64,000 bases of DNA from Spirochaetaceae bacterium (GTDB lineage: Bacteria; Spirochaetota; Spirochaetia; DSM-27196; SKKC01), in NCBI GenBank assembly GCA_046542845.1, contig JBKHAN010000011.1, positions 2,537 through 66,536 of the forward strand, written 5' to 3'. The stretch's first letter is position 1. Each line of letters starts with the position of its first letter. Under the pieces are notes generated by a model, which did not search any database, was not told the DNA's origin, and saw only the letters and a program-made list of their open reading frames with translations. Positions 2,574-60,063 of this stretch are shown here, one piece after another. Made by a program: the position numbers and the translations under genes.

Positions 2574-2630
2574 GGCTCTGGCTACACTATCGGAGGCAAA
2601 CTCAACGCGCTTGAGAGTGCAGCCGCCGTC

Positions 2631-10406: not shown

Positions 10407-11155
10407 GTGTTCAGAAATTCCCGTATGACCCGAATGGTTTCTTTCGGATACTCTGCGTGAACCCAGTGACCGGCTTCCGGTATGCAGTGTTCCCGCAGAT
10501 TGCGGGCAAGCGATCGCATCGCTGCTCGAGCTTCGTCGGAGGCATACTCCGACTTGCCCCCGTACACGAGCATGGCGGGTATGGTGATTTCGGCAGCCGC
10601 CGGGTAAGGCCAGTCGAGAATGTGCTCATAGTCGGTCTGTATGAGGGGAACGTTCAGTTTCCAACGCGAACTGTGGGAATCGTAGCTTTTAAGCAGGAAC
10701 GCGCGTACGCCGCGGTCGGGCACGTATTCGGACAGGATCGAATCTGCGTCGCTGCGACGATTCGGAGCGGCATCGCCGACGACCCGCATCCCTTCCAGAA
10801 TGCGCTCGTGGCTCGGTTTGTAGCGCACCGGACATATATCCACCACCAGAAGCGAACGAACGTGTTCCGGAAACTCAAGCGCCAGAGCCATGGCGATCTT
10901 ACCACCCATACTGTGTCCCACGAGGTGTACAGGCCCGAAATCTTTGAGGAAGGCGGCGACGTCCGATGCCATGGCGGGGTACTGCATCGATGTTCCGCTC
11001 GGCGAATCGCCATGGTTCGGCAGATCCGGGAGCACAACATGATAGAAACCGCTCAACTCGCGCGCGGGCGTCAGCCAGTTGTCGCCGGATCCGAACAGTC
11101 CGTGCAAAATGACCACTGTCTCCCCACTGCCCAGCTCCTGGTAATGAAGCGTCAC
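10403..11155 (-). CDS. Alpha/beta hydrolase, YbfF-like esterase
   Basis: ILHGLFGSGDNW and the GHSMGGKIA nucleophile elbow are present. The layout matches E. coli YbfF as I recall it. The stop overlaps the glgX ATG (ATGA). Confidence 0.85.
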   Translation of the reverse strand: MTLHYQELGSGETVVILHGLFGSGDNWLTPARELSGFYHVVLPDLPNHGDSPSGTSMQYPAMASDVAAFLKDFGPVHLVGHSMGGKIAMALALEFPEHVRSLLVVDICPVRYKPSHERILEGMRVVGDAAPNRRSDADSILSEYVPDRGVRAFLLKSYDSHSSRWKLNVPLIQTDYEHILDWPYPAAAEITIPAMLVYGGKSEYASDEARAAMRSLARNLREHCIPEAGHWVHAEYPKETIRVIREFLNT

Positions 11156-11191
11156 GACAAGGAACCTCCCCCGGGACCCGCGCTAATCGTA

Positions 11192-12280
11192 TTATCGCCT
11201 GCGCCGTTTACGCGAGCGGCTTTCACCGGGCCGTGCCGGCTGCGTCGCCTGTTTTTGACGGCGGATCTCTTCTTTCAGGGCCTCCGTCTCGGCAGCGTCC
11301 ACGACAACCGCTTCGCCACCTTTGTCGGCGCCGGCGTCTGCTGCAACGGCGGCTCGGGGACGGGGACTGTCGCCGGATGTTTTCGTCCTGCTTCGCTTCT
11401 GCAGTGCCAGCAGGGTCGGCGCGGCGACAAAGACAGACGAGTATGTACCGACGATAACGCCGACCAAAAGCGCGAGCGCGAAATCCTGTATGGTCCCGGT
11501 CGCGAACACGAGTATCGCGAGGACTGCGAGCAGAGTCGTCATGGACGTAATGAGCGTACGGGTAAGACTCTGGGTGATACTCGTGTTTATCACGTGCTCG
11601 AACCGTGCCCCGCGCATGACAAGCTCGTTTTCGCGAATGCGGTCAAAAATAACGATTGTATCGTTCAGGGAGTATCCGACCACGGTGAGGACTGCGGCAA
11701 CAGTCGCCGTTGAAACCTCGATCTGAAACGCACCAATGAAACCGAGAAGCACGATAACGTCGTGTATGATCGGTAGAATAGAGCTGACCGCGTATGCAAA
11801 GCGGAACCGTATCCACACGTAGAAGAGAATGAGGACAAAAGCCACCGTGGTAAGCCATACCGCCTGCTGAGCGAGGCTTGCGGAGAACTGGGGACCAACC
11901 AGGGCGGATTCTTCTTCCAGAACCGCGTCTACGCCGAAGCGTTCACGAAGCACATCGAGCAGTTCACTCTGAGCTGTCGAAGTGAACTCGGGGTCGGTAC
12001 CGTCATCTATAATGCGGATACTGAAACGCTGCTCGGCTCCATCGCCGACCGACTGTACAGCCACTCCGTCGATACCACTGAGCGCGGAACGTACGTCCTG
12101 GAGACTTGCCGCCGAGACCGACGGATCTATAGCTACCTGCTGGCGCAGTCCGGGTTGAAAGTCCACACCCAGGTTAAAGCCGCCCTGGGCGACCGTCCCG
12201 CCGATGCCGGCGAGCACAACTACAACCGAGACGACAATAAAAACGTACCGTGTCTTGAGAAAATCGATTGTTCGCGTCAT
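11192..12280 (-). CDS. secF: Protein translocase subunit SecF
   Basis: It has SecD/SecF-type membrane topology and a GLDFQPG-type periplasmic start. It sits directly after secD. Start set at ATG 12280, which overlaps the secD stop (ATGA); the track start is 12292. There is an Arg/Ala-rich C-terminal tail. Confidence 0.9.
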   Translation of the reverse strand: MTRTIDFLKTRYVFIVVSVVVVLAGIGGTVAQGGFNLGVDFQPGLRQQVAIDPSVSAASLQDVRSALSGIDGVAVQSVGDGAEQRFSIRIIDDGTDPEFTSTAQSELLDVLRERFGVDAVLEEESALVGPQFSASLAQQAVWLTTVAFVLILFYVWIRFRFAYAVSSILPIIHDVIVLLGFIGAFQIEVSTATVAAVLTVVGYSLNDTIVIFDRIRENELVMRGARFEHVINTSITQSLTRTLITSMTTLLAVLAILVFATGTIQDFALALLVGVIVGTYSSVFVAAPTLLALQKRSRTKTSGDSPRPRAAVAADAGADKGGEAVVVDAAETEALKEEIRRQKQATQPARPGESRSRKRRRR

Positions 12281-14558: not shown

Positions 14559-14852
14559 TCAGACGAGCATGACCCGTGTGACGTTGTCCGGTACCGTTGT
14601 GACGCCAAACAGGCGCTTCAGTCGGTCTACGGTCGCGCTCTGCAGTCCCGAGACTTCCGAGAATTTTTCGCATACCAGCTGCATTTCCCCTTCGTCGCTT
14701 CCGTATAACGCGGAACAGAATGCAGCCCTGTGCAACCCTTCGCGCAGCAGCTCCTGTGTGTCAAGTCGCCCGTACTGCTTCCGGGCAGTGCGGTCAACCA
14801 TAGCGGTGCTACCCTGATACCCGATTGTAAAAACAAAGTCTTCGCGTTTCAT
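14559..14852 (-). CDS. Hypothetical small protein
   Basis: 97-aa ORF between groEL and yajC on the same strand, with balanced composition. I recognise no family. Confidence 0.45.
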   Translation of the reverse strand: MKREDFVFTIGYQGSTAMVDRTARKQYGRLDTQELLREGLHRAAFCSALYGSDEGEMQLVCEKFSEVSGLQSATVDRLKRLFGVTTVPDNVTRVMLV

Positions 14853-14902
14853 AACAATACCCGCATGGTCTTCAGTCTACCGAAACCGGGGACCTGTGGA
14901 CA

Positions 14903-14936
14903 GACAAAAAGACGCCCGGCAGTGCGTGCCGGGCGA
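14903..14936 (-). terminator. Intrinsic terminator of groEL
   Basis: The minus-strand RNA is CGCCCGGCA-CGCA-CUGCCGGGCG followed by UCUUUUUGU, about 65 nt after the groEL stop. Confidence 0.7.
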
Positions 14937-15002
14937 TCGATATGTTTCGCACCCGTGCCGGATGCGAAACAGCTCATTCTTTCCTGTGGTCTTCGAGGCA
15001 GC

Positions 15003-16731
<1,729 letters not shown>

Positions 16732-28572: not shown

Positions 28573-30327
28573 TCAGGCGTCGCTCGCGACCGTGTCTACG
28601 GAAATTCCGTGCATGCGGGCGAGCTCGTCAGCCCCCGCGGCGAATGCGCGGGAGGCTTCGCGATACCTGAAGCCGGTTATGATGCCGAGACCGCTGAACA
28701 ACGCATCGTGAAGCGCGTTACTGAACAGCGTGAGGTAGGCTCTGCGTTCGACGGAACCCGTGGCGTTCCGGATCAGTAAGGACGATGCGTTGAGCGCCTT
28801 CGCGAAGGACGCGACCTGACGCGTCAGAACCGGGTACAGCGTCCGCAGAAGATCAACGTACACGCTGCGGTAAGCGTTGTCTCCTGCGACCAGATAGGAA
28901 ATCTGTACGAAACGATCCCGCTCCTGCACCTTCTTTCGCGACGACCCGCCTGACCCTGCGCTGCGTTCACGCAGCGGTATGGAATCCCTGACCCGTGCGG
29001 CTACCGCATCGTTCTTCAGAATCTTGTACATGGAAAGATAAAACAGCATGACCTGAGCATTCCGGAGCTCGGCAGCTGCGGTCATCCCGGCGCATGAGCC
29101 AAGAAGCGTTCGCGCTGCACCTTCGGCCTGCGTGAGCGTTCGCTCGAGATTCTCCCTCGAGACCGTAGCGAAACCGCGGGCGTGTGCGCTCTGGGCTTCA
29201 ACGGCCGCCTCGATGTGACGGACAGCCTGTCGGGCCGTCTGCCACAGGGAGTCAGCTCTGACGGTCTCGATTGCTGTACGGACATCCGCGCGCTTCTCGA
29301 GCCCAAGAAGCGAAAACTCGGGGTATTCACGCACGATGCGCGACAACCCCGCGACCCGTGCTCCCACATGGGAGCCAAGGGTATCCACGGCCAGAAGCTC
29401 GACTTCGGTTACCAGTTCATCGATATCCTCGCTCAGAGCGTGCGGACGACCGAGCACTGCCCGGGTGAAGCGCCCGAGCGCCTGGCTCATCGCAGAGGAC
29501 GCGAGCAGACGTCCCGCAATTTCGTCTGAAAGCTGCATGGCGAGCGAATACAGACTGCGCAGCATGATCGTCAGCGCGTCGGGGAGGCCCGTTTGCAGCA
29601 TGTTCAGCGCGGGGTCCTCGGGGACAAAGGCAATGTCGCTGATGCGCGCACGCTCACTCGCCGAAATCCTGAGATCTTCGGTTGTGTTGCGGTTGTAGTT
29701 GGCGACAAGATCCCGAGGATTAAAGCCGTCGGGCCCCTGCAGCCGAAAGCGGTTGTGCCATATATGTACATCTCGCGTCGGCTTTCGATGCAACACTTCA
29801 CGAAGATACCCGCCACCGGAGGCGTGTGCGGTCGGTTCGGGGTTGGTGACCAGCAGTACCGAGTCGGCAAGGTCAAGGAATCGGATGTTGGTCGCCTCCT
29901 CGACACCCGCCGGCAGGTCCAGGATAATGACCCGATATTCCTTGCGAAGCGCATGGCCCTGCTTCCCGGACAGCAGCGAAAACAGAGCATCGGAGTCCTC
30001 GACACCACGCTTCGCCTGATGGAACAGGATGTCCAGCCGGTCGAAGGGGCTGATCCGGTAGTCGTTCAGGTCAGCGTCGGCGCGCACCTCGCGTGTTTCC
30101 AGGCTGTGCTCGGGGCGGCTGAGGTCGAGAAAGGCCGTTACGTCGGACAGTGGATCGAGATCGACCAGTACGGTCGATACACCGTGACGCGCGTAATACA
30201 GGGCCAGATTTACCGCAGTTGTGGTCTTTCCCACCCCGCCCTTTCCGGACGTGATCGCGATACAACAGCCTGTTTCATGGGTCCTGCGGTCCTTGTTCGA
30301 AGCTTCCACAGTGTGCGAGCATAGCAT
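28573..30327 (-). CDS. ParA/MinD-family P-loop ATPase with a ~330-aa uncharacterised, helix-rich C-terminal extension
   Basis: The deviant Walker A reads IAITSGKGGVGKTTTAVNLA, followed by LVDLDP and a Walker B-like VIILDLPAG. ORF 28573..30567 is trimmed to ATG 30327, because the longer form overlaps the divergent gene. I recognise no family in the C-terminal half. Confidence 0.8.
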   Translation of the reverse strand: MLCSHTVEASNKDRRTHETGCCIAITSGKGGVGKTTTAVNLALYYARHGVSTVLVDLDPLSDVTAFLDLSRPEHSLETREVRADADLNDYRISPFDRLDILFHQAKRGVEDSDALFSLLSGKQGHALRKEYRVIILDLPAGVEEATNIRFLDLADSVLLVTNPEPTAHASGGGYLREVLHRKPTRDVHIWHNRFRLQGPDGFNPRDLVANYNRNTTEDLRISASERARISDIAFVPEDPALNMLQTGLPDALTIMLRSLYSLAMQLSDEIAGRLLASSAMSQALGRFTRAVLGRPHALSEDIDELVTEVELLAVDTLGSHVGARVAGLSRIVREYPEFSLLGLEKRADVRTAIETVRADSLWQTARQAVRHIEAAVEAQSAHARGFATVSRENLERTLTQAEGAARTLLGSCAGMTAAAELRNAQVMLFYLSMYKILKNDAVAARVRDSIPLRERSAGSGGSSRKKVQERDRFVQISYLVAGDNAYRSVYVDLLRTLYPVLTRQVASFAKALNASSLLIRNATGSVERRAYLTLFSNALHDALFSGLGIITGFRYREASRAFAAGADELARMHGISVDTVASDA

Positions 30328-30357
30328 GCGGACCCCGACTCTGCTATAGTGCAGACG

Positions 30358-31071
30358 ATGAATGCGAAAACCATCATCTGCCTTCACGGCTACGGGGTAC
30401 GCAGTTTTTTCTGGGAACCGATCCTTCCGGAACTCCGCGATATGTTTCCCGATGTCATAACCCCCGACCTCCAGATGAAGACCATAGACACGCTGCTCGC
30501 AACGACCTGCACCGCGATACAGGAGAAAGCCAGACTCGACGGTGTTCCGCTGGTTCTCCTGGGGCACAGTCTCGGCGGAATCGTCGCCGCGCTCTGCGCG
30601 CAGGAACTCGGCCCGTCCATCGTAGGGAGCGTTATCATTATTGCGTCGCCCTACGGAACCCGTGAAACGGTCCCCGGACCGTTCGCGCGCTTTCTCCTGG
30701 CAACAGGGCTCATTCCCGACGCCCTCGTACGTCCGCGATTTTTTTCACCCGCGACACCTGTTGCCGATCAGAAGTATGTTTTCGCGCAAGCCGTACCGGA
30801 ATCATCGGCCATGCGACAGACGATACTCCAGCGGAAATGGTTCCACACCGACGCGTTTGGACAGCCGCTCCGTCAGCCGGCGCTCGTGATCGCCAGCACC
30901 GAAGACCGGATTGTTCCGTCGGCCGAGAGCCGGCAGTTCGCCGAGGTACTCGGGGCCACGTACACGGAGTTTGACGCCCGCCATAACGTCGGACACGACG
31001 ATTTTGTGTGGGCTCCGGATATCGCCGCCCAGGTCATGCAGCACATACAGAGCTTTCTCGGGGTCCGATAG
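30358..31071 (+). CDS. Alpha/beta hydrolase
   Basis: ICLHGYG and the GHSLGG elbow are present. Start set at ATG 30358. TATAGT (30345..30350) lies 7 nt upstream and there is no SD. Confidence 0.8.
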   Translation: MNAKTIICLHGYGVRSFFWEPILPELRDMFPDVITPDLQMKTIDTLLATTCTAIQEKARLDGVPLVLLGHSLGGIVAALCAQELGPSIVGSVIIIASPYGTRETVPGPFARFLLATGLIPDALVRPRFFSPATPVADQKYVFAQAVPESSAMRQTILQRKWFHTDAFGQPLRQPALVIASTEDRIVPSAESRQFAEVLGATYTEFDARHNVGHDDFVWAPDIAAQVMQHIQSFLGVR

Positions 31072-31074
31072 TAC

Positions 31075-31470
31075 ATGCGACTCTCATCACACACGCAACT
31101 GGCACGCCTTACCCTTCCCCGCACCCTGAAGATCTGCCTTGCTGTCGCGGGAAGCACGGAGCTTGCGGCGGCAATGGTTCTGGTCAGCCATCCCGCCTCC
31201 GCCTACGGTTTACGATTGTTCGCGGGGATGCTTGGAGCGCTCGGGATTCACAGCCTTGTCTCGCTGCATCAGACGCCGTACAGCATGCGAACGCTGCTGA
31301 ATCTGCGTATCCTGACCGCGTGTGCCGTATGCCTCGCGACCGGGGTAGAGGTCGTGCTTCGCTGGCGGGGCGTGAACGGCATTCTGATGGCGGGGCTCAG
31401 CGCATACGGGGCGGTGAGCATTCCCCTGTGGCTCTACTGGCGGGTGCGGGTGGGGCGATTGCCCCAGTGA
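31075..31470 (+). CDS. Hypothetical small membrane protein
   Basis: 131-aa ORF that fills the gap after the hydrolase gene. It has about 4 hydrophobic spans. Other long ORFs here are Arg-rich shadows of the lipase gene. Confidence 0.45.
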   Translation: MRLSSHTQLARLTLPRTLKICLAVAGSTELAAAMVLVSHPASAYGLRLFAGMLGALGIHSLVSLHQTPYSMRTLLNLRILTACAVCLATGVEVVLRWRGVNGILMAGLSAYGAVSIPLWLYWRVRVGRLPQ

Positions 31471-32399
31471 CCCTGCGAACCGAGCCAGGCCGAGATCGTT
31501 CGAAAAACATCGGTCCTGTCGAACTCTTTCAGTATTTCGTGCCGATCGTCGGGAAAGATGCTGACCGTGACGGTGCAGGCGGTATGTCGGCGAAGCAGGG
31601 CGGCCACCCGGTTCACCCCGGCGCCGAAGAGCCCAACCGGGTCCCTGCCCCCCGACACAAGCAGCACGGAAACCGAGTCGTGGACGGTACGCAGTCGTCG
31701 GGGGGAGTTCACCTCGATGAGGCCACCAATCATGTCCCGAAAAAACGCCCGGCAGGGCACAAATCCGCACGCCGGGTCGGCTACGTACGCGTCGACTTCG
31801 TCCTCGTCGCGGCTCAGCCAGTCGTACGACGTGCGGTTCGGCGCAAATGCGCGGTTGAAACCGCTCGATGTCAGTGCAGAAAGCAGGGGGCTGCGGACCC
31901 CCGCCCCGCGACCCATAGACAGCAGCCGGGCGAGCATCCGGCCTGTACGCCCCGCGATACCAGGGTGCGGCGCCGTTCCGCACAACACATATCCGGCGTA
32001 CCTCCCCGCATCGCGGATCATGCAGCTCCGAGCGACAAAACTGCCCATGCTGTGTCCGAACAGGAATACCGGGACGCGGGGATACCGTTCGTGTATCCAG
32101 TCGCGAACACGAAACGCATCGTTCACAACCGCGTCCCATCCGTCTCGGGCGGCAAAGAACCCCGTCCGTGACTCTTCCGGTTCCGCGCGACCGTGGCCCC
32201 GATGATCGTGGGCGACGACCGCGTAGCCCGCTTCGGAGAGGAACGCGGCGAACTCGTGATACCGGTCCTTATGTTCAGCCATTCCGTGCAGGATCTGGAC
32301 GACTCCGCGAGGCTCCTCACGGTTTGTCGGAAGCACCCACCCCTGCCTCACCACGCCATCGACCGGAGAAGACACGCTAAACATCTCGAGACCCATCAT
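31434..32399 (-). CDS. Lysophospholipase / monoacylglycerol-lipase-like alpha/beta hydrolase
   Basis: ILHGMAEHKDRY, HDHRGHGRA and the GHSMGSFVA elbow are present. Start trimmed to the ATG pair 32399/32396, with GAGGGG upstream. Confidence 0.85.
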   Translation of the reverse strand: MMGLEMFSVSSPVDGVVRQGWVLPTNREEPRGVVQILHGMAEHKDRYHEFAAFLSEAGYAVVAHDHRGHGRAEPEESRTGFFAARDGWDAVVNDAFRVRDWIHERYPRVPVFLFGHSMGSFVARSCMIRDAGRYAGYVLCGTAPHPGIAGRTGRMLARLLSMGRGAGVRSPLLSALTSSGFNRAFAPNRTSYDWLSRDEDEVDAYVADPACGFVPCRAFFRDMIGGLIEVNSPRRLRTVHDSVSVLLVSGGRDPVGLFGAGVNRVAALLRRHTACTVTVSIFPDDRHEILKEFDRTDVFRTISAWLGSQGHWGNRPTRTRQ

Positions 32400-33558: not shown

Positions 33559-33963
33559 CTAAAACTGGAACGGGTGCGGCAGGAGATCGGGCATCGTATA
33601 GGTTTCACGCACCTCGTCGAGATTCGCGATCAGGACCTCGGTACGGGGTGAGGAGAACTGAGCGAGGACCTGCAGGCAGATTGCACAGGGCACCGCCAGC
33701 GGATCTGCGTCGGTCACGACAAGCACGAAATCAAGCTCGGCGTGTCCCATGTCGGCGACCATGGACATGACGGCGCCCCGCTCGGCACATATCGTTGCGC
33801 CGTAGCTCGCGTTCTCCACGTTGCAACCTCCGTAGATCTGCTCATGCCCACGTGCCTTGATCGCGGCGCCGACCCGGAATCCGGAATACGGCGCATACGC
33901 TCGTTCTCTCGCCTGCCTCGCTATCTCCAGTGCGTGTTCAATCGTATGAGTCCGGTCGTTCAT
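33559..33963 (-). CDS. cdd: Cytidine deaminase
   Basis: CAERGA and PCAICLQ zinc-ligand motifs are present. Start trimmed to ATG 33963. Confidence 0.9.
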   Translation of the reverse strand: MNDRTHTIEHALEIARQARERAYAPYSGFRVGAAIKARGHEQIYGGCNVENASYGATICAERGAVMSMVADMGHAELDFVLVVTDADPLAVPCAICLQVLAQFSSPRTEVLIANLDEVRETYTMPDLLPHPFQF

Positions 33964-34032
33964 GATGTCCCTCTCGTGCAAGATTACACGGCTTCCCGTA
34001 TACTGAAAAGGACACACGGAGTTATAGCACGC

Positions 34033-35361
34033 ATGGGTATCAGAACATTCTTTTCGCCTGAGCGGGTCGTGTTTCTACGGCCCGCAGACAAAAAATCTGC
34101 GATCGACACGCTCGTACGAACTGCATGCGAGTCTGCCGGCATACGGCATCCGAAACTCATAGCCGACCTGGTGTTCTCCAGGGAAGAAGAAATATCGACC
34201 CGGGTATCGGAGGGTGTTGCGATACCCCACGCGAAGCTGCCTCATTCAGACCGGACCGTTGGCTGTATCGGCATCTCGTCTGAGGGCGTGCAGTACGACG
34301 GGGGAACGGTACACGTGATTATACTGATGCTATGGGCGCATACGACCAATCTGCTGGTGCTGAGTGACCTGGGGAGGCTGCTGCGCAGGTCGGACGTCTA
34401 CGATTCCCTCCGAAAATCCCGGACAGCCGAGGAGGTGCTGCACGTCCTTTCTCACCCGCCGACACGCGTGGAGCACGAACCGGAAAAGAAGAGGATGGCG
34501 GCTGAGACCTTTCTACACGCGATTCGACTCGCCGAGGCGATACACGTTGACTCCGTGCTTCTATTCCCGGACGCAATGGGTTCGACAGACTTCTTTACGA
34601 CAGTTACCCGTCTCGCGAACGAGCGCCGCGAGTATGCAGGGCGGGTGCTGCTCCTGACAAGCGACCCCGACGCCTATGCGCAGAATACCATTGTCGACGA
34701 GATTATCGACCTGCCGGTAAAGTCGGTCAGCGATCACAGTATTACGACGACATCGCTTCTTTTTCTGCTCAGCAACGGCATACTGGAAAAAAATGAACGG
34801 GTGCTTACCCTGTTCGGCAAGCCCTCAAGCGGCTCGCTCGATACGATTCGCCTCACAGACCTGCAGCAGGAGTTCGGTTCGCTGTTCAGGCTTCCCAGCG
34901 GTGGCGTCGGCAGCGATATCGACGATCTCGTGTTCGCCCGGGTTCTGCAGCTTGCAACCGAGCTTGCGCAGGAAGGCCGCGAGGGCAAACCCGCAGGTGC
35001 CATTTTCGTCCTCGGCGACTACGGGACCGTGCAGGAGTACTGCCATCAGTTGCTGATCAACCCGTTTCGGGGAATCAGCGAGTCCGACCGGAATGTCCTT
35101 GATCCCGGGCTCGAGGAGACGGTCAAGGAGTTTTCCCGCATAGACGGGGCGTTTCTCATTGGCGGCGACGGCGTCATTCAGAGCGCGGGCACCTACCTGC
35201 GCGCCGACGTGGAAGTGGAAGATCTGCCTCAGGGGCTCGGTGCCAGACACACGGCAGCCGCAGCAATCACCGCAGTCAGTGCATCTGTCGCTATCGCAAT
35301 CAGTGAATCGACCAAGCGGATTTCAGTGTTTCGGGAGGGTCGACGCGTCATGAATGCCTGA
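34033..35361 (+). CDS. Diadenylate cyclase (DAC/DisA_N) domain protein with an N-terminal PTS EIIA type-2-like domain and a central pyruvate-kinase-C-terminal-like domain
   Basis: Start set at ATG 34033, because the upstream part of ORF 33742.. overlaps cdd. The EIIA-2 style motif is SEGVAIPHAKLP. The middle region reads VLLLTSDPD...VLTLFGKPSSGSLDTIRL. The C-terminus reads RIDGAFLIGGDG...GLGARHTAAAAIT...AISESTKRISVFREG, which carries the DGA and RHxxA motifs of DAC domains. Confidence 0.85.
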   Translation: MGIRTFFSPERVVFLRPADKKSAIDTLVRTACESAGIRHPKLIADLVFSREEEISTRVSEGVAIPHAKLPHSDRTVGCIGISSEGVQYDGGTVHVIILMLWAHTTNLLVLSDLGRLLRRSDVYDSLRKSRTAEEVLHVLSHPPTRVEHEPEKKRMAAETFLHAIRLAEAIHVDSVLLFPDAMGSTDFFTTVTRLANERREYAGRVLLLTSDPDAYAQNTIVDEIIDLPVKSVSDHSITTTSLLFLLSNGILEKNERVLTLFGKPSSGSLDTIRLTDLQQEFGSLFRLPSGGVGSDIDDLVFARVLQLATELAQEGREGKPAGAIFVLGDYGTVQEYCHQLLINPFRGISESDRNVLDPGLEETVKEFSRIDGAFLIGGDGVIQSAGTYLRADVEVEDLPQGLGARHTAAAAITAVSASVAIAISESTKRISVFREGRRVMNA

Positions 35362-35370: not shown

Positions 35371-37641
35371 TCAGGGACCCGCGGGAGGCGGAGCATCGTA
35401 GAGTTGCAAGGCCTCCATTCTCGCGGCAGCGCGTCGTCGTTTCTGCTCACCGTACTGTTCAGGGCTAACCGGTTCGGGCCGTTCGTCGGTGGTCTTCTGA
35501 AGACCTCCGTTCACCCGCATGACAGCACCGGGGTTTCGGTCGAGAAAGTCGTGCACGTCGTCATACGTGATCGCAAAGACACGCGCCCTCGTCTCGCAGG
35601 TTACCGCACACGAACTATTCTGTCGGCGATGTAGCTCTCCCATGCTGCCGGCGAGCATTCCACGCTGCAGGCGGTCAACCGATCCGTTCCCATCATCGAC
35701 CTGGAGAATTCCATCTCGAATGAGAAATACCTCACCGACAGGCTGGTCCCGGCGTATGAGAACCGTTCCGGCCTCGTAATCGCGTGGCTGCAGGACGGAT
35801 TCGAGCCACATGCGCTGGTAATCGGTCAGGTGTGCGAACGGCAGACCCTCGGCAAGCAGATTCCACGTCTCTTCGCTCCGATTTCGAATCAGGCGTCTGA
35901 GGACCGCCTCAAACTCTGTCCCCGCGATAAAATTCAGGAACCTCGATCGCTCGATCGAGAGAACCTCGACGTCCGACTCCGCGATTACGTCGGCGGTTCG
36001 GTCGCTGTCCGTCATGAGCGCTACTTCGCCAAAATAGTCGTATGCACCGAGCATCTTGCTGCGTACAAGGTTATCGGCAAGGACTGCGGCGTTACCGTTC
36101 ATGACGATGTAAAAGTAATTACCGCGAGTCCCGCGGCGGATAATATAGTCGCCCGCGGCGAAGGTCTGCCTCTCGGCGATACCGAAAAACTGCTGTACCT
36201 TGGGTATGCTCATGTCGCGAGCGAAATCGAGCTGTTTCAGCACGTCGAGTACCCGATACGCCTCTTCGTACTGCGGTGGCGAGGTATCGAGATATCGCGT
36301 GTGCTCTATACCGAACGAAGCCCGGGTCAGAAGCGCATCAGCAGGAAAATCCTTTTCTGCAATGTGGAAGCAGGTAATCTTGCGCTGTACGTGTTCGGGC
36401 AGGCTCGCCAGGAAGGACACCGGAGTGTGCAGCGGGGCAATACCGGCTTCGTGATAGATCACATCCGCATCCCAGGGAAAACTTTTCAGCTGTTCGTAAC
36501 GACGCCGGTCTATCACACCGTCCTTGAGCATGGCATCGTGTATCGCGGGGTCATTCTGATGGTCGCTTGAGTAGACGAAGCTTTTGTCCTGGAAGGTCAG
36601 TCTGAACGCCATGGTCGGTATTGAGTGGACCGAGTAGTACACCTTGAACTCTCCGCCGTGGAGATAGAAACTCTGATCGGTGTATACGGGATTATAATCA
36701 AAGAGCGATTTCAGGAACTCCGGTTCCTCACCGGAAAACGCCGCGTACTTGCGCAGAAAGCTCTGCATGATCGTCGGAGTCGTGTACACCGTGACCCGAC
36801 CTTCCTGAAGGATTTTCTGAAAGGTACCCGCGTCGTGGTCCGCGTGGCAGTGGGTCAGGATGATGCTGTCGATAAACTTCGGATTGACGTTGGACTGCAG
36901 GAGCCATTCGGTGCAGTTAACCGGGGGATCCACCATAATGCCGCTGTGATTCAGCCAGATTATGAAGCCCGAGGTATTATCGTGAGGGTCAAAGCCGTGG
37001 CTCGGTCCAAGACAGGTGACGCCGAAGCGGGGCGGCACAAAGGGGTTGAGCAGGCGTTCGCCAATGTCGTAACGCGGGGTATATGAAACGTCCGCCGGAA
37101 CCGGCACCGAGTCCTGTCCGTCCCAGCTGAACAGGAATGCATCCGGGGTACTCTCTATGGTAACACCGTCGATCTCTACCACGTTGTTCCGGAAACAGAC
37201 TATGTCAAACAGATCGTCGAGGGTCAGCGGACCGCGAAAGAACGATAGTTCTTTTGAAATGTCGGGCACCCACGTGTCAGGGTCGTCCGAGAATGTGTCC
37301 ATGTGCAAGTCGAGCGTTTCGGGCCCGAATACCGACTCGCGTATTGCAACAGCGAGTCGCTGTCCCTGCTCCTCGGTGCAGCAGATCGCTATTTTCTGCT
37401 TGCGAATAAAGAAGTTGAAATAAATCGGAAACTCCATATCTCCGACGTTGATGCCTTTCTGCCAGTGAAACAGGTCATGCGGAAGAACGAAAATCCTCGG
37501 CACCGATTCGGGCGTTACGAGCGTGTCCTTGATGGTCTCCGGCGGTGCGCCGACCTGTATGCCACCGATCGGAGTGCGAATAATCCGTCCTCCTCGAGGA
37601 AGCTCTATGACCTGCCCCAGCCGTACCTCTGATCCACTCAT
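35371..37641 (-). CDS. MBL-fold metallohydrolase fused to two cyclic-nucleotide-binding (CAP-type) domains
   Basis: ILTHCHADHDAG is the HxHxDH motif. The first cNMP module reads YFGEVALMTDSDRTADVIA. The second reads GSMGELHRRQNSSCAVTC. About 230 aa at the N-terminus are unassigned. Confidence 0.85.
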   Translation of the reverse strand: MSGSEVRLGQVIELPRGGRIIRTPIGGIQVGAPPETIKDTLVTPESVPRIFVLPHDLFHWQKGINVGDMEFPIYFNFFIRKQKIAICCTEEQGQRLAVAIRESVFGPETLDLHMDTFSDDPDTWVPDISKELSFFRGPLTLDDLFDIVCFRNNVVEIDGVTIESTPDAFLFSWDGQDSVPVPADVSYTPRYDIGERLLNPFVPPRFGVTCLGPSHGFDPHDNTSGFIIWLNHSGIMVDPPVNCTEWLLQSNVNPKFIDSIILTHCHADHDAGTFQKILQEGRVTVYTTPTIMQSFLRKYAAFSGEEPEFLKSLFDYNPVYTDQSFYLHGGEFKVYYSVHSIPTMAFRLTFQDKSFVYSSDHQNDPAIHDAMLKDGVIDRRRYEQLKSFPWDADVIYHEAGIAPLHTPVSFLASLPEHVQRKITCFHIAEKDFPADALLTRASFGIEHTRYLDTSPPQYEEAYRVLDVLKQLDFARDMSIPKVQQFFGIAERQTFAAGDYIIRRGTRGNYFYIVMNGNAAVLADNLVRSKMLGAYDYFGEVALMTDSDRTADVIAESDVEVLSIERSRFLNFIAGTEFEAVLRRLIRNRSEETWNLLAEGLPFAHLTDYQRMWLESVLQPRDYEAGTVLIRRDQPVGEVFLIRDGILQVDDGNGSVDRLQRGMLAGSMGELHRRQNSSCAVTCETRARVFAITYDDVHDFLDRNPGAVMRVNGGLQKTTDERPEPVSPEQYGEQKRRRAAARMEALQLYDAPPPAGP

Positions 37642-37954: not shown

Positions 37955-38839
37955 CTATGCGGGAGGGTTGAGCGGAAGTGAGAGCGTTTGCCGCCGCATG
38001 CCTGCCTCGGTAAAGGTAAGCTCGTATGAAGCGTCGTCCACCCACTCGAAGGCAGACCGCGAGCCGAAGCCCTGGTCTACAAACGAAATGGCCGTATCGA
38101 TGCAGAGGTATCTGCCGTCATACCTGGTCAGGAAGTTTCCGGATGCCTGGGGGGTGTGTCCGCAGACATACACGCTCGCACGGTTGTTCTTGAGAAATGT
38201 GTGCAGGACCGAACCGTAATCCGGTTGCGCCTGTTGCCCGGCAGCATCTGAACACAGAATACTGGTCTCGGGTGAGAAGAGCGAAAGCGGCAGATCCGCC
38301 TTGCCTTCGAGAAAGGCCTCACGATTACGTCCGAGTTCCTGGTGTACCGCGGAGTTCACATCGGCGATCTGAAGATCTCGAAAGATTGGCGGCAGATCTG
38401 CCGGCGCAAATACGAACGGATATATGCGTACCATGACCGGAAGCCCTGACAGCCAGTCCGAAAGCCAGCCCCCCGGCGCAAACGCGCGCTCCAACGCGTC
38501 CTGACCCGGCTCATTCGCCGTCCGGTACGAGCTTCGTTCAGCACCGGATGAAGCGGTGTGCATTCCGAAGAGGTGAATGGCTTCGTGCTGCCCGAGCAGG
38601 GTATATACGCGGCTGCCCACAGCCGGCGCCTCGGCGTGCAGCCGCATGAGCGTGCGGTACACGGTGGCGCTGTCTGGACCGCGATCACAGATATTGCCAA
38701 GCATGACCAGCGCCGTGTCACGTGCCGTAAACCGACCGTTCGCGTCGGTCAGATCACAGCCCGAAAGAAGCTCTCCGAAAAATTCGGCGTCTGCGTGGAG
38801 GTCCCCGACTGCTATGATACGCCTGAACGCGCGAGCCAT
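37955..38839 (-). CDS. Metallophosphoesterase (PPP / ApaH-like calcineurin-fold phosphatase)
   Basis: GDLHAD, GNICDRGPDS, GQHE and VCGHTP metal-ligand motifs are present. Confidence 0.85.
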   Translation of the reverse strand: MARAFRRIIAVGDLHADAEFFGELLSGCDLTDANGRFTARDTALVMLGNICDRGPDSATVYRTLMRLHAEAPAVGSRVYTLLGQHEAIHLFGMHTASSGAERSSYRTANEPGQDALERAFAPGGWLSDWLSGLPVMVRIYPFVFAPADLPPIFRDLQIADVNSAVHQELGRNREAFLEGKADLPLSLFSPETSILCSDAAGQQAQPDYGSVLHTFLKNNRASVYVCGHTPQASGNFLTRYDGRYLCIDTAISFVDQGFGSRSAFEWVDDASYELTFTEAGMRRQTLSLPLNPPA

Positions 38840-38868: not shown

Positions 38869-39657
38869 TCAAAACATTGTGAAAGTCAATACAAGAAATA
38901 CTCCCATGCCCAGCAATCCCGTTATGCCGCTCCCTTTCATGTTCCAGAATGCGAGCTGACCGACCGACTCGAGAAACCATGTCAGGAGATACATTATCAG
39001 AAGCGGAACAACCGGCAGTACGAAGCTGCCGAGGACAAGCCGAACCACAAAGGTTATGGCCGCAGCCCCGAAGAACCATCCCACCAGATTCTGGAGCGGT
39101 ATCCCGAAGTACCAGCCGTCCTGATCCCACTCCCAGAAACGCCACCCCACCATCTGGGGATCAAGGAACAGGTCCCACGCCGCGAAGGCTGCCCCGGCTA
39201 CGAGCGAAAACAACACGACATTACCGCTCGGGACAAGCACGGTGGCAACGGCCCACGAGGGTGGCATCATCATGATCCAGGCAAGGGGAATCAACACCGG
39301 AACCTCCCCCACCTGGGGTTGGAGCCGTTTCGTGTAATGATAGCGACCGAAGGGAAAGCCGGTGTGACTGCCCACAAACTCGAGCATCCAGCCGAGCAGC
39401 GCAATAATGACGCCGGCGACAAGGGTCGGCTGAACTCCCGCGCCGAGCGCCATGAGCGTAAGCACCGTAGTCGTCTGCAGGACGACCCCGACGGATACGC
39501 CCAGCGGAACGGCGGCGTCGGACCAGATCCAGCGGATGATGGGAAGCCCGATCATGGAAAGTAGCCAGACACCGCCAAGAACCATTACCGCGAGCGGCAG
39601 TTCAGAGAGAGAGACAGCCATATGTTCAAGCATATTCAGGACCTTATTACCTGCCAT
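38869..39657 (-). CDS. Multi-pass membrane protein resembling the carotenoid-biosynthesis-protein (DUF422/CruF-like) family
   Basis: It is hydrophobic throughout. EFVGSHTGFPFGRYHYT and VPVLIPLAWIMM resemble that family as I recall it. The start is uncertain (39657, 39633 or 39621). Confidence 0.65.
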   Translation of the reverse strand: MAGNKVLNMLEHMAVSLSELPLAVMVLGGVWLLSMIGLPIIRWIWSDAAVPLGVSVGVVLQTTTVLTLMALGAGVQPTLVAGVIIALLGWMLEFVGSHTGFPFGRYHYTKRLQPQVGEVPVLIPLAWIMMMPPSWAVATVLVPSGNVVLFSLVAGAAFAAWDLFLDPQMVGWRFWEWDQDGWYFGIPLQNLVGWFFGAAAITFVVRLVLGSFVLPVVPLLIMYLLTWFLESVGQLAFWNMKGSGITGLLGMGVFLVLTFTMF

Positions 39658-40805
39658 CCTGCCTTGAGGAACGCAGGAATCGGCACTGTAGACATGATTT
39701 TCAGATTATCCCACACGCCGTCCTGCTCGTCGAGAAAGCTGAACATGCGGGCGACCGGATTGCGATCGAAAAACCGGACAAAAACGTGCTCGGCGAGGTC
39801 TCCGCGTTCGAGCAGGACCTGCAGGAGAATAGAGTCAAAGGTATGGTAGCGTTTCGGCGTTTGCGGAAGGTCAAAGGGATGGCCGGTGCGCTTGAGCGAG
39901 TCGACGATGGCCTCTGCGTCCCACTGCATGCGCATAAACGCGTAACCGGTCGACGCTTTGACCCGACCGCCGAGGGTGCCGATACGCAGTATGTGTTCTC
40001 CGCCGCGACGCTCAAAAGGCTGATCGGTCATTGGTATAATACACGCTTCCTCGCCGATTACCTCGTATTCGGTGATCCCGAGTACGTCGCGAATATAGTC
40101 GGCAATGCGCTGGTCGTATTCTTCCGGTGGCAGGGTTTGGGCACTGAACAGGGTAAACTCGACATGTGCTTCTCTTCGACTCCACGGCATCACGTAGAAA
40201 AAGCGCATAACGTTATGCTGTGGTGTACGGAAATCGAACATACGCGCCGTATCCACGTCAAAACGGTCGTCGGGGGTGCGAATCTCCACGCCCTTGAAGT
40301 GCTGCTTGAGGTTACGGTATTTCGTCTCGTCTACGGTCAGATTGTGATACTTCCACCGGCTGTCAAATACCCACCGCCCTGCAAACGTGGCTCCTTTGAC
40401 CACGATCTCCGCTCCCTCAGCAGTATCCCGGACCTCCTCGACATGCGCGGTCAGAAACTCTACCCCGGGGCAGGCAGAAAGGCGCTCCTTCACGAAGCGG
40501 TAAAAATCCCCGGATCGAAGCATCTGATATCGATACGGCGTCATGGGGAGGACAAGGTTCCTGCCGTCGCCGACGATCTGCACAGTGTCCCAGCTCGTCC
40601 GTATTATTGATTCGTACGGGGTGGTACCGGTAAGCCAGAAACACCAGTTGCGATCGTTCGCAATCTTCTCCTCTTCGTCCACAATGAGCATGCGCGACTG
40701 CTCGAAGCCAGACTCGACCAGATGATAGGCGAGACTCAGCGACGCCCCGCCGCCGCCTGCAAAAATGAAGTCGTACTGGTTCTCCGAAACCCCGTGCGTA
40801 GCCAT
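39636..40805 (-). CDS. Lycopene-cyclase-family flavoprotein (CrtY/CrtL-type fold)
   Basis: The N-terminal dinucleotide fold reads YDFIFAGGGGASLSLAYHL. Size is about 390 aa. Start set at the first ATG (40805); the track start 40841 is TTG. Confidence 0.7.
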   Translation of the reverse strand: MATHGVSENQYDFIFAGGGGASLSLAYHLVESGFEQSRMLIVDEEEKIANDRNWCFWLTGTTPYESIIRTSWDTVQIVGDGRNLVLPMTPYRYQMLRSGDFYRFVKERLSACPGVEFLTAHVEEVRDTAEGAEIVVKGATFAGRWVFDSRWKYHNLTVDETKYRNLKQHFKGVEIRTPDDRFDVDTARMFDFRTPQHNVMRFFYVMPWSRREAHVEFTLFSAQTLPPEEYDQRIADYIRDVLGITEYEVIGEEACIIPMTDQPFERRGGEHILRIGTLGGRVKASTGYAFMRMQWDAEAIVDSLKRTGHPFDLPQTPKRYHTFDSILLQVLLERGDLAEHVFVRFFDRNPVARMFSFLDEQDGVWDNLKIMSTVPIPAFLKAGWQVIRS

Positions 40806-40872
40806 GCGATGAATGTACCCCCTCGTGCGTTTGCTTGACAACGGGAAAGCGGCGGGCTCACACTGCAGTTCT

Positions 40873-57150: not shown

Positions 57151-57627
57151 TTACTCTACCGTCGCCGGGAGCCAGGAACCCCGGTCCCCGGGCAGGGCAT
57201 TCCGGAAGAAATCAAAATCGTCAAGAAACGTAAGCACGAAATCGCAGATATCGAGCGGCGAACCCGAGTCCCAGGCAAATATCAGCGTCTCACCCTCGTG
57301 TTCGAGCACCCTGACCTCACGCATGGGCTCGTCGATGCGCTGAAGCTCGCGAGTGCCGCAGGCATCGATTTCAGGATTCCCGGGCAAGGGGAGCTCGGAT
57401 GCCGTGTAGTAGACATCGAGGGCGGTACCCTCGACTTCGTACCGCGCGCTGTGATAGGGCACTACAGTACGGGGAAAGATCTCGATACCGACAACACGCC
57501 GTGGAGCCTCCACGAGCACCCCGGTCGCGGCACCAAGAGGCAGCGCCGCCACCACAGCAAGCAGCAGCGCTGCCGCCGGCTTACTCCACGGTGACGCTTT
57601 TTGCGAGATTCCTTGGCTGGTCAACAT
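57151..57627 (-). CDS. Hypothetical secreted protein
   Basis: 158-aa ORF with signal-peptide-like KPAAALLLAVVAALPLGAATG and balanced composition. Its start (ATG 57627 or TTG 57624) lies inside the 3' end of glmS, and there is no SD. Confidence 0.45.
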   Translation of the reverse strand: MLTSQGISQKASPWSKPAAALLLAVVAALPLGAATGVLVEAPRRVVGIEIFPRTVVPYHSARYEVEGTALDVYYTASELPLPGNPEIDACGTRELQRIDEPMREVRVLEHEGETLIFAWDSGSPLDICDFVLTFLDDFDFFRNALPGDRGSWLPATVE

Positions 57628-59407
57628 CTCTGCCGAGTTCCAGGGCGGTGTAATAGGCGAACAGCTGAAGCGGAACGACGGTCAGATACGGGTAGAGCAG
57701 CTCGTTCGTCCTCGGGACAAACATGACGTCGTCGGCAATATCGGCGAGTTCGTTGTCGCCGTCCACCCCAAGCGCTATGACCTTCCCGTTTCTCGCTTTC
57801 ACTTCTTTCATGTTCGAGATGACCTTATCGCGCAGACCGTCGTCCGGCACGATAAACAGACTCGGTGTCTCCTCGTTAATGAGCGCAATTGGCCCATGCT
57901 TGATTTCAGCTGCGCTGTAGCCCTCCGCGTGGATGTAGCTGATTTCCTTCAGCTTGAGCGCTCCCTCAAGCGCCACCGGATAGTTGATTCCCCGCCCGAG
58001 GAAAAGAAAATTCTTTGCGTGAGCGTACTTTTTCGCGAGTTCCTGAACGTGCTCGGTTCGCGTCAGCACCTCCTGCACCAGGTCGGGAATGCGCTCGAGG
58101 TCGTTCATGAAGCGGAGGCCCGCTTCGTAGCTCATGTGGCGCATGCGGGCGAGGAGCAGCGTGAACAGGTACAGCGCGCTGAGCTGACTCGTGAAGGCTT
58201 TCGTGGAAGCCACCGCGATCTCCGGGCCCGAGTGTATGTACACGCCCCCGTCGCTTTCGCGGGGAATCGTGGAACCCACCACGTTACAGATTCCGAGCAC
58301 TCGGGCGCCTTTGCGCTGAAGTTCGCGCATCGCGTACAGCGTATCCGCGGTCTCGCCGCTCTGACTCACGGCGAAATAGACGTTGTTGCGTTCGACTATG
58401 GGGTTGCGGTAGCGGAGTTCGCTCGCGAGCTCGCTGCCCGCCGGCACGCGAGCGAGGCCCTCAAGCGCGTACGCTGCGACAAGACCGGCGTGATAGCTTG
58501 TTCCGGCCGCTATGATTTTGACGCGTTCGATATCGAGAAGCTCACGACTCGTCATGTTCAGACCACCGAGATGCGCGGTTGCATTCTCCGGTTCGAGACG
58601 ACCCTGAATAGCCCGAAGGATGCTCTCGGGCTGTTCAAAGATCTCCTTCTGCATGTAATGGTCGTAGCCGTTCTTCTCGATTTCCTCGATCTGCCAGCCG
58701 ATAACCTGTAGCTCCCGGTCTATGGGCTTGTCCCTGAGGTCTGTGGTCCGGTAGCCTTCGGCGGTAACTCGAACAACTTCCCCGTCTTCGATGTAGAGCA
58801 CCTGCTTGGTGTGCTCAACGAGCGCGGTCACATCGCTTGCGAGAAGCATTTCCCCGTCACCCACCCCGACGACCAGCGGAGAACCGTTTCGGGCCCCCAC
58901 GATCACTCCCGGCTCGCGCACGTGCATGGCAAGAATGCCGTAGGTACCCTTCAGAAGTGCCACCGCCTGCTTGACGGAGCCCTCAAGATCTCCGTCGTAC
59001 AGGTCCGCGAGGAGGTGTGCAATGACCTCGCTGTCTGTCTCGGAGGTAAACACGAAGCCTTTCTGCTCGAGTCGTTGCTTGAGCGAACTGTAGTTTTCGA
59101 TGATGCCGTTGTGGACTATGCACACCTCTCCTCTGACGTCGGTATGCGGGTGGGCATTGTAGTCCGATACGCTGCCGTGGGTCGCCCACCGGGTGTGCCC
59201 GATACCCGTACTGCCGGGGAGATCGACCGGAACGGTCTTTCTGAGGTCAAGGATTTTCCCCTTCTTCTTTATGACCTTATGGCGGCCGTCAACGCCGAGC
59301 ACCCCGATGCCCGCCGAGTCATATCCCCGGTATTCGAGACGCTTGAGCCCCTCGATAAGAATGGGCGCCGCCACTTTTGGCCCGCAATAACCGATTATTC
59401 CACACAT
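57581..59407 (-). CDS. glmS: Glutamine--fructose-6-phosphate aminotransferase
   Basis: The N-terminal nucleophile reads MCGIIGY. Two SIS domains are present. The C-terminus ends in VTVE. Length is 608 aa. Confidence 0.97.
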   Translation of the reverse strand: MCGIIGYCGPKVAAPILIEGLKRLEYRGYDSAGIGVLGVDGRHKVIKKKGKILDLRKTVPVDLPGSTGIGHTRWATHGSVSDYNAHPHTDVRGEVCIVHNGIIENYSSLKQRLEQKGFVFTSETDSEVIAHLLADLYDGDLEGSVKQAVALLKGTYGILAMHVREPGVIVGARNGSPLVVGVGDGEMLLASDVTALVEHTKQVLYIEDGEVVRVTAEGYRTTDLRDKPIDRELQVIGWQIEEIEKNGYDHYMQKEIFEQPESILRAIQGRLEPENATAHLGGLNMTSRELLDIERVKIIAAGTSYHAGLVAAYALEGLARVPAGSELASELRYRNPIVERNNVYFAVSQSGETADTLYAMRELQRKGARVLGICNVVGSTIPRESDGGVYIHSGPEIAVASTKAFTSQLSALYLFTLLLARMRHMSYEAGLRFMNDLERIPDLVQEVLTRTEHVQELAKKYAHAKNFLFLGRGINYPVALEGALKLKEISYIHAEGYSAAEIKHGPIALINEETPSLFIVPDDGLRDKVISNMKEVKARNGKVIALGVDGDNELADIADDVMFVPRTNELLYPYLTVVPLQLFAYYTALELGRDVDQPRNLAKSVTVE

Positions 59408-59445: not shown

Positions 59446-60063
59446 TCAGGTACCGATTCCGGCTTCGCTTCGAAGAGCCGACTGCTGTTCCAGACTGATG
59501 TTTTCGCCGTCTTCACGGTACACCGATGCGGCGACGAGTTGCTTAAGCACAGTGTCGACAATATCACGGTCGACCCCAAGGTTTCTCGTAATCTCGTCGA
59601 TAATCGTTTCCCTCGGCACCTGACCTTCGCCCGGTTGCTCGAGCGAACGTACATAGAGGTTCATGGCGATCATACGACGGAAATTTGCGTTCACCATGGT
59701 ATCGATGCGGTCATTCGCACCCTGAAGGCGCCGGCAGAGTTTATCTATAATGCTCATGGCGATCTTGCTGTTCTTGGAGATGAGCCCCTGGAAACCCTGA
59801 CGGTCGAAGGCGAGCAGTTCCACCTCACCGACCGCACGGGCGCTCGCAGTTCGTTTAACCCAGCTGACTATGGCCATTTCCCCGAAAAACTCACCGCGCT
59901 GAAGCTGTGCGAGCTCTACCTGCCTGCCGCTAATGCGTTTGGTGATGCTGACAGTGCCATCCTGTACAATGAACATGAGTGTCCCGTTTTCGCCCTCCTC
60001 GAAAATCGTCTCTCCAGGAGCAAAGGTCTGTCCGTACTGCTCAAATAACTTCGACCCGGCCAT
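59446..60063 (-). CDS. Crp/Fnr-family regulator (cNMP-binding domain + C-terminal HTH-like region)
   Basis: GEFFGEMAIV....RTASARAVGEVELL is a cNMP pocket motif. RETIIDEITRNLGVDRDIVDTVLKQL looks HTH-like. Confidence 0.8.
   Translation of the reverse strand: MAGSKLFEQYGQTFAPGETIFEEGENGTLMFIVQDGTVSITKRISGRQVELAQLQRGEFFGEMAIVSWVKRTASARAVGEVELLAFDRQGFQGLISKNSKIAMSIIDKLCRRLQGANDRIDTMVNANFRRMIAMNLYVRSLEQPGEGQVPRETIIDEITRNLGVDRDIVDTVLKQLVAASVYREDGENISLEQQSALRSEAGIGT

Follow-up and report, generated by a model that had tools for sequence, protein, structure and literature searches.

The 64,000-nucleotide stretch considered here (contig JBKHAN010000011.1 of a Spirochaetaceae bacterium, positions 2,537 to 66,536; below, the window) contains a plus-strand gene (34033–35361) encoding a 442-aa protein with three folds, namely an EIIA domain of type 2 of the phosphotransferase system (PTS), a domain resembling the C-terminal domain of pyruvate kinase (PK_C-like) and a diadenylate cyclase (DAC) domain. 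Profile searches and structure models place the presence of these three folds far beyond chance. As judged from alignments, the core motifs of the cyclase and the phospho-acceptor site of the EIIA domain are both intact. The three-part design is real but not new; the gene adds another member to a large family which spans several phyla, is represented in the databases already and, as far as the literature searched shows, is experimentally uncharacterised. We infer that the best-supported mechanism for it would be the gating of cyclic di-AMP (c-di-AMP) synthesis by phosphorylation of His66 in the EIIA domain.

The gene is complete, its 1329 nt including the stop codon. In an earlier list of open reading frames (ORFs) it started with a GTG codon at position 33742. 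This extension overlaps the divergent cdd gene (33559–34017, minus strand), the homologues are 436–450 aa long with alignments spanning 100% of the 442-aa form, and a GGAG sequence lies 11–14 nt 5' of the ATG codon at 34033; for these reasons, this ATG was taken as the right start. Minus-strand genes flank the EIIA-DAC gene on both sides, cdd upstream and, downstream, a convergent gene for a 756-aa protein with a metallo-beta-lactamase (MBL) fold and domains binding cyclic nucleoside monophosphates (cNMP). The stop codons of the latter gene and of the EIIA-DAC gene are 9 nt apart. Because both neighbours are located on the opposite strand, the EIIA-DAC gene must be monocistronic. A scan for promoters and terminators around the gene gave counts equal to those in shuffled sequence. 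The protein lacks transmembrane segments (its highest 19-aa hydropathy, 1.65, falls inside the EIIA fold) and, by its sequence, is soluble and cytoplasmic.

A sequence-only reading of this DNA had divided the protein into EIIA type 2, PK-C-like and DAC modules, and Pfam, a profile search of the PDB and structure models all agree with this division. The N-terminal PTS_EIIA_2 domain (aa 6–140; 34048–34452, plus strand) was recognised by Pfam with E = 6.7e-18 (65.5 bits, cutoff 27). When a profile built from 115 homologues was compared with the PDB, it retrieved the PtsN structures 3urr (4e-21) and 1a6j (4e-20) and, behind them, the EIIA-Mtl structure 1a3a (5e-14). The full-length AlphaFold2 model (predicted local distance difference test score, pLDDT, 86.9; predicted TM-score, pTM, 0.64) was compared with E. 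coli PtsN (1a6j) using Foldseek, and the target-normalised TM-score was 0.85. The equivalog model of PtsN, TIGR01419, was not passed (36.5 bits, cutoff 138.7). Thus, in sequence and in modelled fold the EIIA domain is nearest to PtsN/EIIA-Ntr.

The middle domain (aa 162–283; 34516–34881, plus strand) was matched by the Pfam model DacZ_P with E = 0.032, which is below the cutoff for the single sequence. A Pfam scan of 96 relatives found EIIA_2 and DAC in 96/96 and a significant DacZ_P domain in 67/96 (best 2e-12); PK_C was matched by 12/96 (best 2.6e-6) and DacZ_T by 7/96. Since the family members match, the PK_C-like fold of the middle domain can be considered settled despite the marginal E-value. 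With this domain alone as the query, the PDB profile search gave 16 weak matches, of which 14 fall on the C-terminal part of pyruvate kinases. Modelling of aa 146–300 by itself (pLDDT 84.8) led to the same family, as the top 50 PDB matches in Foldseek were all pyruvate kinases, with about 130 aligned columns and E-values down to 7.6e-6. The assignment of the middle ~150 aa to a pyruvate kinase C-terminal domain, which had been made from motifs including VLLLTSDPD (aa 205–213) and VLTLFGKPSSGSLDTIRL (aa 257–274), is therefore upheld. The most conserved loop of this domain, FGxPxSGxLDT (aa 260–271, with Gly262 invariant), was aligned by the PDB profile search to the pyruvate kinase effector loop GSGxTNT, which forms part of the fructose-1,6-bisphosphate effector pocket.

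The C-terminal DAC catalytic domain (DisA_N, PF02457; aa 312–437; 34966–35343, plus strand) was found by Pfam with E = 6e-19 and 68.2 bits (cutoff 27), covering profile positions 3–118 of 119. It is assigned to the DacZ branch by the NCBIfam models, among which haloarchaeal DacZ matched aa 222–441 with E = 3e-36, far ahead of CdaA (1.7e-5) and DisA (3e-5), and the CdaS and CdaM models scored about 1e-5. The DacZ equivalog NF041371 was not passed (125.1 bits, cutoff 430). Foldseek of the full-length model also retrieved M. tuberculosis DisA and CdaA with probability 1.00 and E of about 3e-7. The structure prediction thus leads to PtsN, pyruvate kinases and DisA/CdaA for the three parts of the protein.

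The phosphorylatable-His motif of EIIA type 2/Ntr proteins that had been read in the N-terminal part is located at aa 59–70 (SEGVAIPHAKLP). His66 (codon 34228–34230, plus strand), the predicted phospho-acceptor, was aligned with the phosphorylation site of E. coli PtsN, His73, and Arg50-Glu51 (34180–34185, plus strand) were aligned with Arg57-Glu58 of the same protein. The context of His66 is GVAIPH, which matches G-[IV]-A-[IL]-P-H with the upstream Arg50. Among the homologues aligned directly (235 sequences), His66 is invariant in 115/115 of the Spirochaete type and in 120/120 of Opitutae; Arg50 and Glu51 are invariant in both sets as well. In a wider set, His66 is kept in 190 of the 199 EIIA-bearing sequences, and five of the remaining nine have Gln, Ser or Asn instead. 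The retention of His66, Arg50 and Glu51 across phyla at only ~35% identity argues that the phosphorylation site is in use.

The DGA and RH motifs described earlier for the DisA_N domain, within RIDGAFLIGGDG (aa 369–380) and GLGARHTAAAAIT (aa 401–413), are present, intact and conserved. Asp371-Gly372-Ala373 (35143–35151, plus strand) align to the HDGA motif of L. monocytogenes CdaA and are invariant in 115/115 sequences. Arg405-His406-Thr407 (35245–35253, plus strand) are the counterpart of RHR; the Arg and His are invariant, and family members have either Ala or Thr in the third place. Ser424-Glu425-Ser426-Thr427 (35302–35313, plus strand) correspond to SEET of CdaA, with both Ser and the Thr invariant in the 115-sequence alignment. 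In the alignment to L. monocytogenes CdaA these segments read IDGAF/HDGAV, GARHTAA/GTRHRAA and SESTKRIS/SEETGGIS. None of the sets examined, including the 120 Opitutae homologues, shows any variation in DGA, Arg405-His406, Ser424 or Ser426; in these Opitutae homologues position 427 is Thr in 99 and Ser in 21 sequences. Position 425 is occupied by Glu or Gln in Spirochaetes and by Ser in Opitutae.

To the extent that the three-part architecture had been thought new, this was overturned by the database survey. A homologue search with the window protein gave 684 matches, and domains were counted in the 120 that were listed. All of the 120 contained PF02457, all but one N-terminally truncated 343-aa entry contained PF00359, and about half also contained PF21755; the query coverage was 95–100% in nearly all of them (range 78–100%). 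The best match is 92% identical to the window protein and the closest named relative, from a Spirochaetaceae metagenome-assembled genome (MAG), is 79% identical. Salinispira pacifica and Spirochaeta dissipatitropha are named carriers among these listed matches. When an Opitutales member was used as the query, 2753 matches were obtained at E<=1e-20, and all 120 listed contained PF00359+PF21755+PF02457; the cultured carriers among the Opitutae matches include Opitutus sp. GAS368 (complete genome) and Oleiharenicola lentus. Judging from these domain matches, the same full-length three-domain architecture is found in thousands of database proteins.

When each GTDB species was represented by one genome, a scan found relatives encoded in at least 351 of these genomes. 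The best 80 of these loci comprise 60 from Spirochaetota, nine from Fibrobacterota (Chitinispirillia/Chitinivibrionia), nine from Verrucomicrobiota/PVC (Opitutales, Puniceicoccaceae, Pelagicoccus and Kiritimatiellae) and two labelled Planctomycetota; the nearest among them, with 80% identity, belongs to the Spirochaetaceae MAG isolate CSSed162cmB_249. A search of a library clustered at 50% identity with the DacZ_P+DAC core gave 1144 clusters, 250 of them at E<=1e-30. Among the best 150 clusters, 92 carried EIIA, 52 were two-domain proteins (~280–340 aa), two were long forms and some were fragments. DacZ_P is not restricted to the PTS fusion and also occurs in two-domain proteins. In a neighbour-joining tree of the core, fused and unfused forms were interspersed with 12 parsimony changes, although this is a crude tree, possibly confounded by truncated metagenomic ORFs.

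The source databases name such proteins 'diadenylate cyclase', 'PTS sugar transporter subunit IIA' or 'DisA.../mannitol/fructose-specific PTS IIA component (Ntr-type)'. For the middle domain there is a Pfam model of its own, DacZ_P, and both DacZ_P and DacZ_T match the EIIA-DAC family. The statement of the sequence-only reading that none of the described DAC classes carries an EIIA module holds for the experimentally characterised classes only, as the combination PF00359+PF21755+PF02457 is recorded among catalogued proteins. According to PMC10249747 and PMC12901056, in which it is cited, Galperin 2023 (J Bacteriol 205:e0002323) reanalysed the DAC N-terminal domains and obtained 22 families. 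The representatives of the class 'DacD' are exclusively from Opitutae/Verrucomicrobia, and those of 'DacC' are Deltaproteobacteria and one spirochaete (Braun et al. 2019). Because the fused form dominates in Opitutae and two-domain forms occur in Syntrophales and Nitrospinae, these taxon lists suggest that 'DacD' of Corrigan and Gruendling is probably the EIIA fusion and 'DacC' the two-domain form. In the full-text literature searched, which did not extend to the DAC class surveys of 2013–2023, no description of the EIIA-fused cyclase and no experiment on it was found. A PTS_EIIA_2-containing architecture is probably among the families of Galperin.

All these characteristics allow us to propose a chain in which a cyclase of the DacZ branch would be switched by phosphorylation of His66 through a phosphorelay dependent on phosphoenolpyruvate (PEP), and on the sequence evidence we lean slightly towards this chain as a whole. 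By analogy with DisA and CdaA, two DAC domains would meet head-to-head to make c-di-AMP from two ATP. Because catalysis needs two facing DAC domains, regulation most likely acts on their encounter, and the N-terminal modules would decide whether this encounter is productive. His66 would receive the phosphoryl group from a carrier of the HPr or NPr type, as suggested by the fact that different phyla keep His66, Arg50 and Glu51, and the PEP-dependent phosphorelay, reflecting carbon/nitrogen status, would thereby switch the cyclase; either phospho-form could be the active one. PtsN acts by phosphorylation-dependent control of partner proteins and not by sugar transport, and for this reason the PtsN-like character of the EIIA domain speaks for a regulatory switch. 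The PK_C-like domain would probably provide oligomerisation and a second, small-molecule input; such a metabolite input is hinted at by the alignment of its FGxPxSGxLDT loop with the effector loop of pyruvate kinase.

The EIIA-DAC protein would probably be an extra, signal-specific cyclase beside CdaA, at least in one species in which the two coexist. In Spirochaeta dissipatitropha (locus L082), a canonical operon of CdaA (CdaA_N+DAC) and CdaR (YbbR) was found at 2448–4221, 7 kb upstream of the EIIA-DAC gene (10001–11311), so this genome has two diadenylate cyclases and the EIIA fusion is not the sole one. The protein would then feed the c-di-AMP pool that governs K+/osmolyte homeostasis in other bacteria.

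A comparison with known systems indicates that the archaeal cyclases DacZ/CdaZ (DacY; Haloferax volcanii DacZ and Methanocaldococcus jannaschii CdaZ) are similar in having a PK_C-like domain directly before the DAC domain, in the DGA motif and in being soluble. However, the window protein is bacterial, has 442 aa with an extra N-terminal EIIA domain of 145 aa instead of two domains in ~270–300 aa, and reaches 125 bits against the cutoff of 430, so it is related to archaeal DacZ and is not its orthologue. Archaeal dacZ sits with mscS (PMC6741144), a context which is absent at the window gene. The two-domain bacterial DacZ_P-DAC proteins (Nitrospinae, Syntrophales, Tectomicrobia) share the DacZ_P+DAC core (40–50% identical over 290 aa), the S[EQ]ST motif and an RH pair whose next residue varies, but they have no EIIA domain. 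PtsN (EIIA-Ntr) is the best sequence and fold match of aa 1–145, with His66/Arg50/Glu51 corresponding to His73/Arg57/Glu58; unlike PtsN, the EIIA domain of the window protein is fused covalently to its presumed target, has Asn106 in place of His120 and lacks the rpoN/hpf/npr context.

PtsN controls K+ homeostasis (TrkA, KdpD) by its phosphorylation state, and c-di-AMP controls the same physiology in Firmicutes. In the PRD regulators MtlR and LicR, a C-terminal EIIA_2-like domain is a PTS-phosphorylated switch in a non-transport protein; their output is the binding of DNA or RNA and not an enzyme activity, and both the order of the domains and the partner domains differ from those of the EIIA-DAC protein. 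Phosphorylated EIIA-Glc activates the adenylate cyclase CyaA. In Caulobacter, phosphorylated EIIA-Ntr acts on SpoT/Rel (PMC10118264). By analogy with both of these cases, the phosphorylation state of an EIIA domain would set the output of a nucleotide second messenger here too, but CyaA and SpoT/Rel are controlled in trans and produce cAMP or (p)ppGpp, whereas the EIIA domain of the window protein is in cis and the messenger would be c-di-AMP.

A number of observations weigh against the proposed switching of the cyclase at His66. The phospho-donor is the weakest link of the chain because it has no candidate at the locus. No gene for Enzyme I (EI), HPr/NPr, HprK or EIIB/C was found in the 64-kb window; no match to the motifs of HPr (His15), EI (active-site His), HprK and EIIB was obtained there, and the same motif scan found no PTS partner gene within 10 kb of 80 related loci (1.15 Mb of flanks). 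ORF clustering over 81 loci revealed no neighbour conserved family-wide. In the EIIA domain, the second active-site His (PtsN His120, EIIA-Mtl His111) corresponds to Asn106 (34348–34350); this position is Asn in the window protein and its ten closest relatives, His in 92/115 sequences and Arg or Tyr in Opitutae. One may speculate that such a loss fits a terminal acceptor which does not pass the phosphate on. In the DAC domain, the second Arg of RHR is absent throughout the family, CdaA Glu224 has no counterpart, and in the two-domain DacZ_P-DAC relatives the third RHx position is A, K, V, Y, L, R, H, Q, E, I or M. In addition, no validated DacZ/CdaZ was obtained for the alignment of the motifs, as 0/10 sampled relatives pass the DacZ equivalog and the last homologue search gave bacterial two-domain proteins and not M. 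jannaschii CdaZ.

The absence of PTS genes near the 81 loci and the loss of the second active-site His in the window clade and in Opitutae would also suit an EIIA-like domain which is never phosphorylated and which serves as a phosphorylation-independent module for dimerisation or for binding a partner or a ligand, tuning an ordinary DacZ-type cyclase; for some spirochaetes (treponemes) no Enzyme I is known, which points the same way. After a loss of phosphotransfer, however, the retention of His66 with its Arg and Glu partners across phyla would be unexpected (His66 is replaced in only 5/199 sequences), and we consider this explanation unlikely, though one to be taken seriously. The signal could also flow in reverse or both ways, with a PtsN-like regulator modulated by the nucleotide or metabolite state of the DAC and PK_C-like domains and with c-di-AMP synthesis being secondary. 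The PtsN-like nature of the EIIA domain is in keeping with this, since PtsN works through the binding of partner proteins, but the strict conservation of the DGA/RH catalytic core and the role of N-terminal domains as inputs in the known DACs make it improbable.

It could further be supposed that the DAC domain is catalytically dead and acts as a receptor binding ATP or c-di-AMP. This agrees with RHT in place of RHR, with the lack of an equivalent of CdaA Glu224 and with Ser at position 425 in Opitutae. Yet Pfam matches the DAC profile over its full length, all sequences of the 115-sequence alignment keep DGA, RH and S-x-S-T unchanged (with Thr427 being Thr or Ser in Opitutae), and DisA is likewise not known to have a Glu matching CdaA Glu224. 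Since the third RHx position varies in the two-domain relatives too, its variability in the alignments seems to be characteristic of the branch and not a sign of decay. A dead cyclase is thus, in our opinion, slightly less probable again than a reversed flow of signal. As for the idea that the three-domain ORF is an artefact of assembly or gene calling which fuses separate genes, it was ruled out, virtually with certainty, by the continuous reading frame and by thousands of full-length homologues from independent assemblies and from complete genomes of cultured strains. Gating of c-di-AMP synthesis through His66 therefore stays the reading that we prefer.

The 64-kb window is ordinary chromosomal housekeeping DNA. 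Upstream of the EIIA-DAC gene it contains a GH2 fragment, thrS, secD/yajC, groEL, genes of hybrid histidine kinases, argR/C/B/D and pgi, and further a ParA-like ATPase gene, hydrolase genes, a serC-like gene and cdd. The part downstream of it contains carotenoid genes, galE, ogt, a malK-like ABC ATPase gene, an MCP gene, cheD, glmS and trpA/B. Neither a K+ transporter nor a recognisable c-di-AMP phosphodiesterase was found in the window, and an Rfam search over it at gathering thresholds (covering, e.g., the c-di-AMP riboswitch) gave no match. Across the 81 loci, the largest neighbour cluster (13 loci) consisted of generic ABC ATPases, and the clade-specific neighbours were a ClpA/B-like protein, nuoA and the MBL-cNMP protein. 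Stand-alone EIIA_2 proteins (148–155 aa, His kept) were found near the fused gene in three related loci, with E of about 1e-32 to the fused domain and the His contexts GVAVPHAKL and GIAIPHVRL. In loci L012 and L016 such a gene (16161–16604, minus strand) heads an ABC-2 transporter operon, and in locus L046 (4309–4773, plus strand) it lies 400 nt downstream of the fused gene. These genomes thus use EIIA modules of this kind, which counts in favour of the proposed chain.

The 756-aa protein encoded next to the EIIA-DAC gene (35371–37641, minus strand) contains a metallo-beta-lactamase fold (aa ~220–360, weakly RNase Z-like) and two PKA/PKG-like cyclic-nucleotide-binding domains, from which it may be a cNMP-regulated hydrolase. 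Its adjacency to the DAC gene is kept in loci L001, L002, L003 and L032, where the DAC identity ranges from 80 to 50%, and not in more distant loci. The MBL/cNMP gene is adjoined by a gene for a calcineurin-like metallophosphoesterase (37955–38839, minus strand) that is weakly similar to the Ap4A hydrolase ApaH (E=1.4e-4). A CRP-like cNMP-binding protein (59449–60063, minus strand) is encoded directly upstream of glmS (57584–59407) on the same strand, so that the window contains three cNMP-binding domains in two proteins in total. In one spirochaete clade, a gene for an 836-aa cNMP_binding-GGDEF-DHH protein (locus L045, 860–3367, minus strand; homologues in seven other loci) is located ~6 kb upstream of the EIIA-DAC gene. 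In its layout this protein resembles GdpP, a c-di-AMP phosphodiesterase.

In Opitutae (loci L064, L066, L071, L077, L079 and L081), nuoA, encoding NADH dehydrogenase chain 3, lies upstream of the EIIA-DAC gene on the same strand, and rpmG (L33) follows downstream in Opitutus sp. GAS368 (L081, 9505–11662) and in one JGI metagenome contig; this arrangement is a clade-specific synteny without obvious functional meaning. In the window itself, aa ~100–250 of the 664-aa product of the gene at 28573–30567 (minus strand) form a ParA/MinD-type P-loop ATPase, which is followed by ~400 aa without a Pfam match. A lycopene cyclase gene and a gene for a Caroten_synth membrane protein are arranged in tandem at 38869–40841 (minus strand), which shows that this spirochaete carries carotenoid biosynthesis genes. 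Two long antisense ORFs, one opposite groEL (14730–16688, plus strand) and one opposite two alpha/beta-hydrolase genes (31008–32171, plus strand), have no family matches; both are spurious and typical of a genome with 58–60% G+C.

The window gene itself adds no new kind of system, proteins 92% identical to its product being already in the databases. Its interest lies in the family. The signals that control diadenylate cyclases are a main question in c-di-AMP biology, and we know of no DAC for which regulation by His phosphorylation has been demonstrated so far. The EIIA-DAC family would offer an unusually clean and testable DAC input, with known chemistry, a defined His and a donor of the HPr/NPr type. 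It is quite possible, though in our estimate somewhat short of probable, that the family is a single-polypeptide link from the PTS/PTS-Ntr phosphorelay to c-di-AMP, in which phosphorylation of His66 would switch the cyclase and the PK_C-like domain would add an input from a glycolytic metabolite. Connecting the PTS to c-di-AMP in this way is an attractive idea and open to testing in cultured carriers; members of the family occur widely among environmental Spirochaetota and Opitutae, cultured strains included, so that experiments are feasible. If the link is true, the EIIA-DAC protein would join two systems that both govern potassium homeostasis, combining within a single polypeptide what PtsN does in Proteobacteria with what c-di-AMP does in Firmicutes, and carbon/nitrogen status would set K+/osmolyte homeostasis via c-di-AMP in Spirochaetota, Opitutae and Chitinivibrionia.

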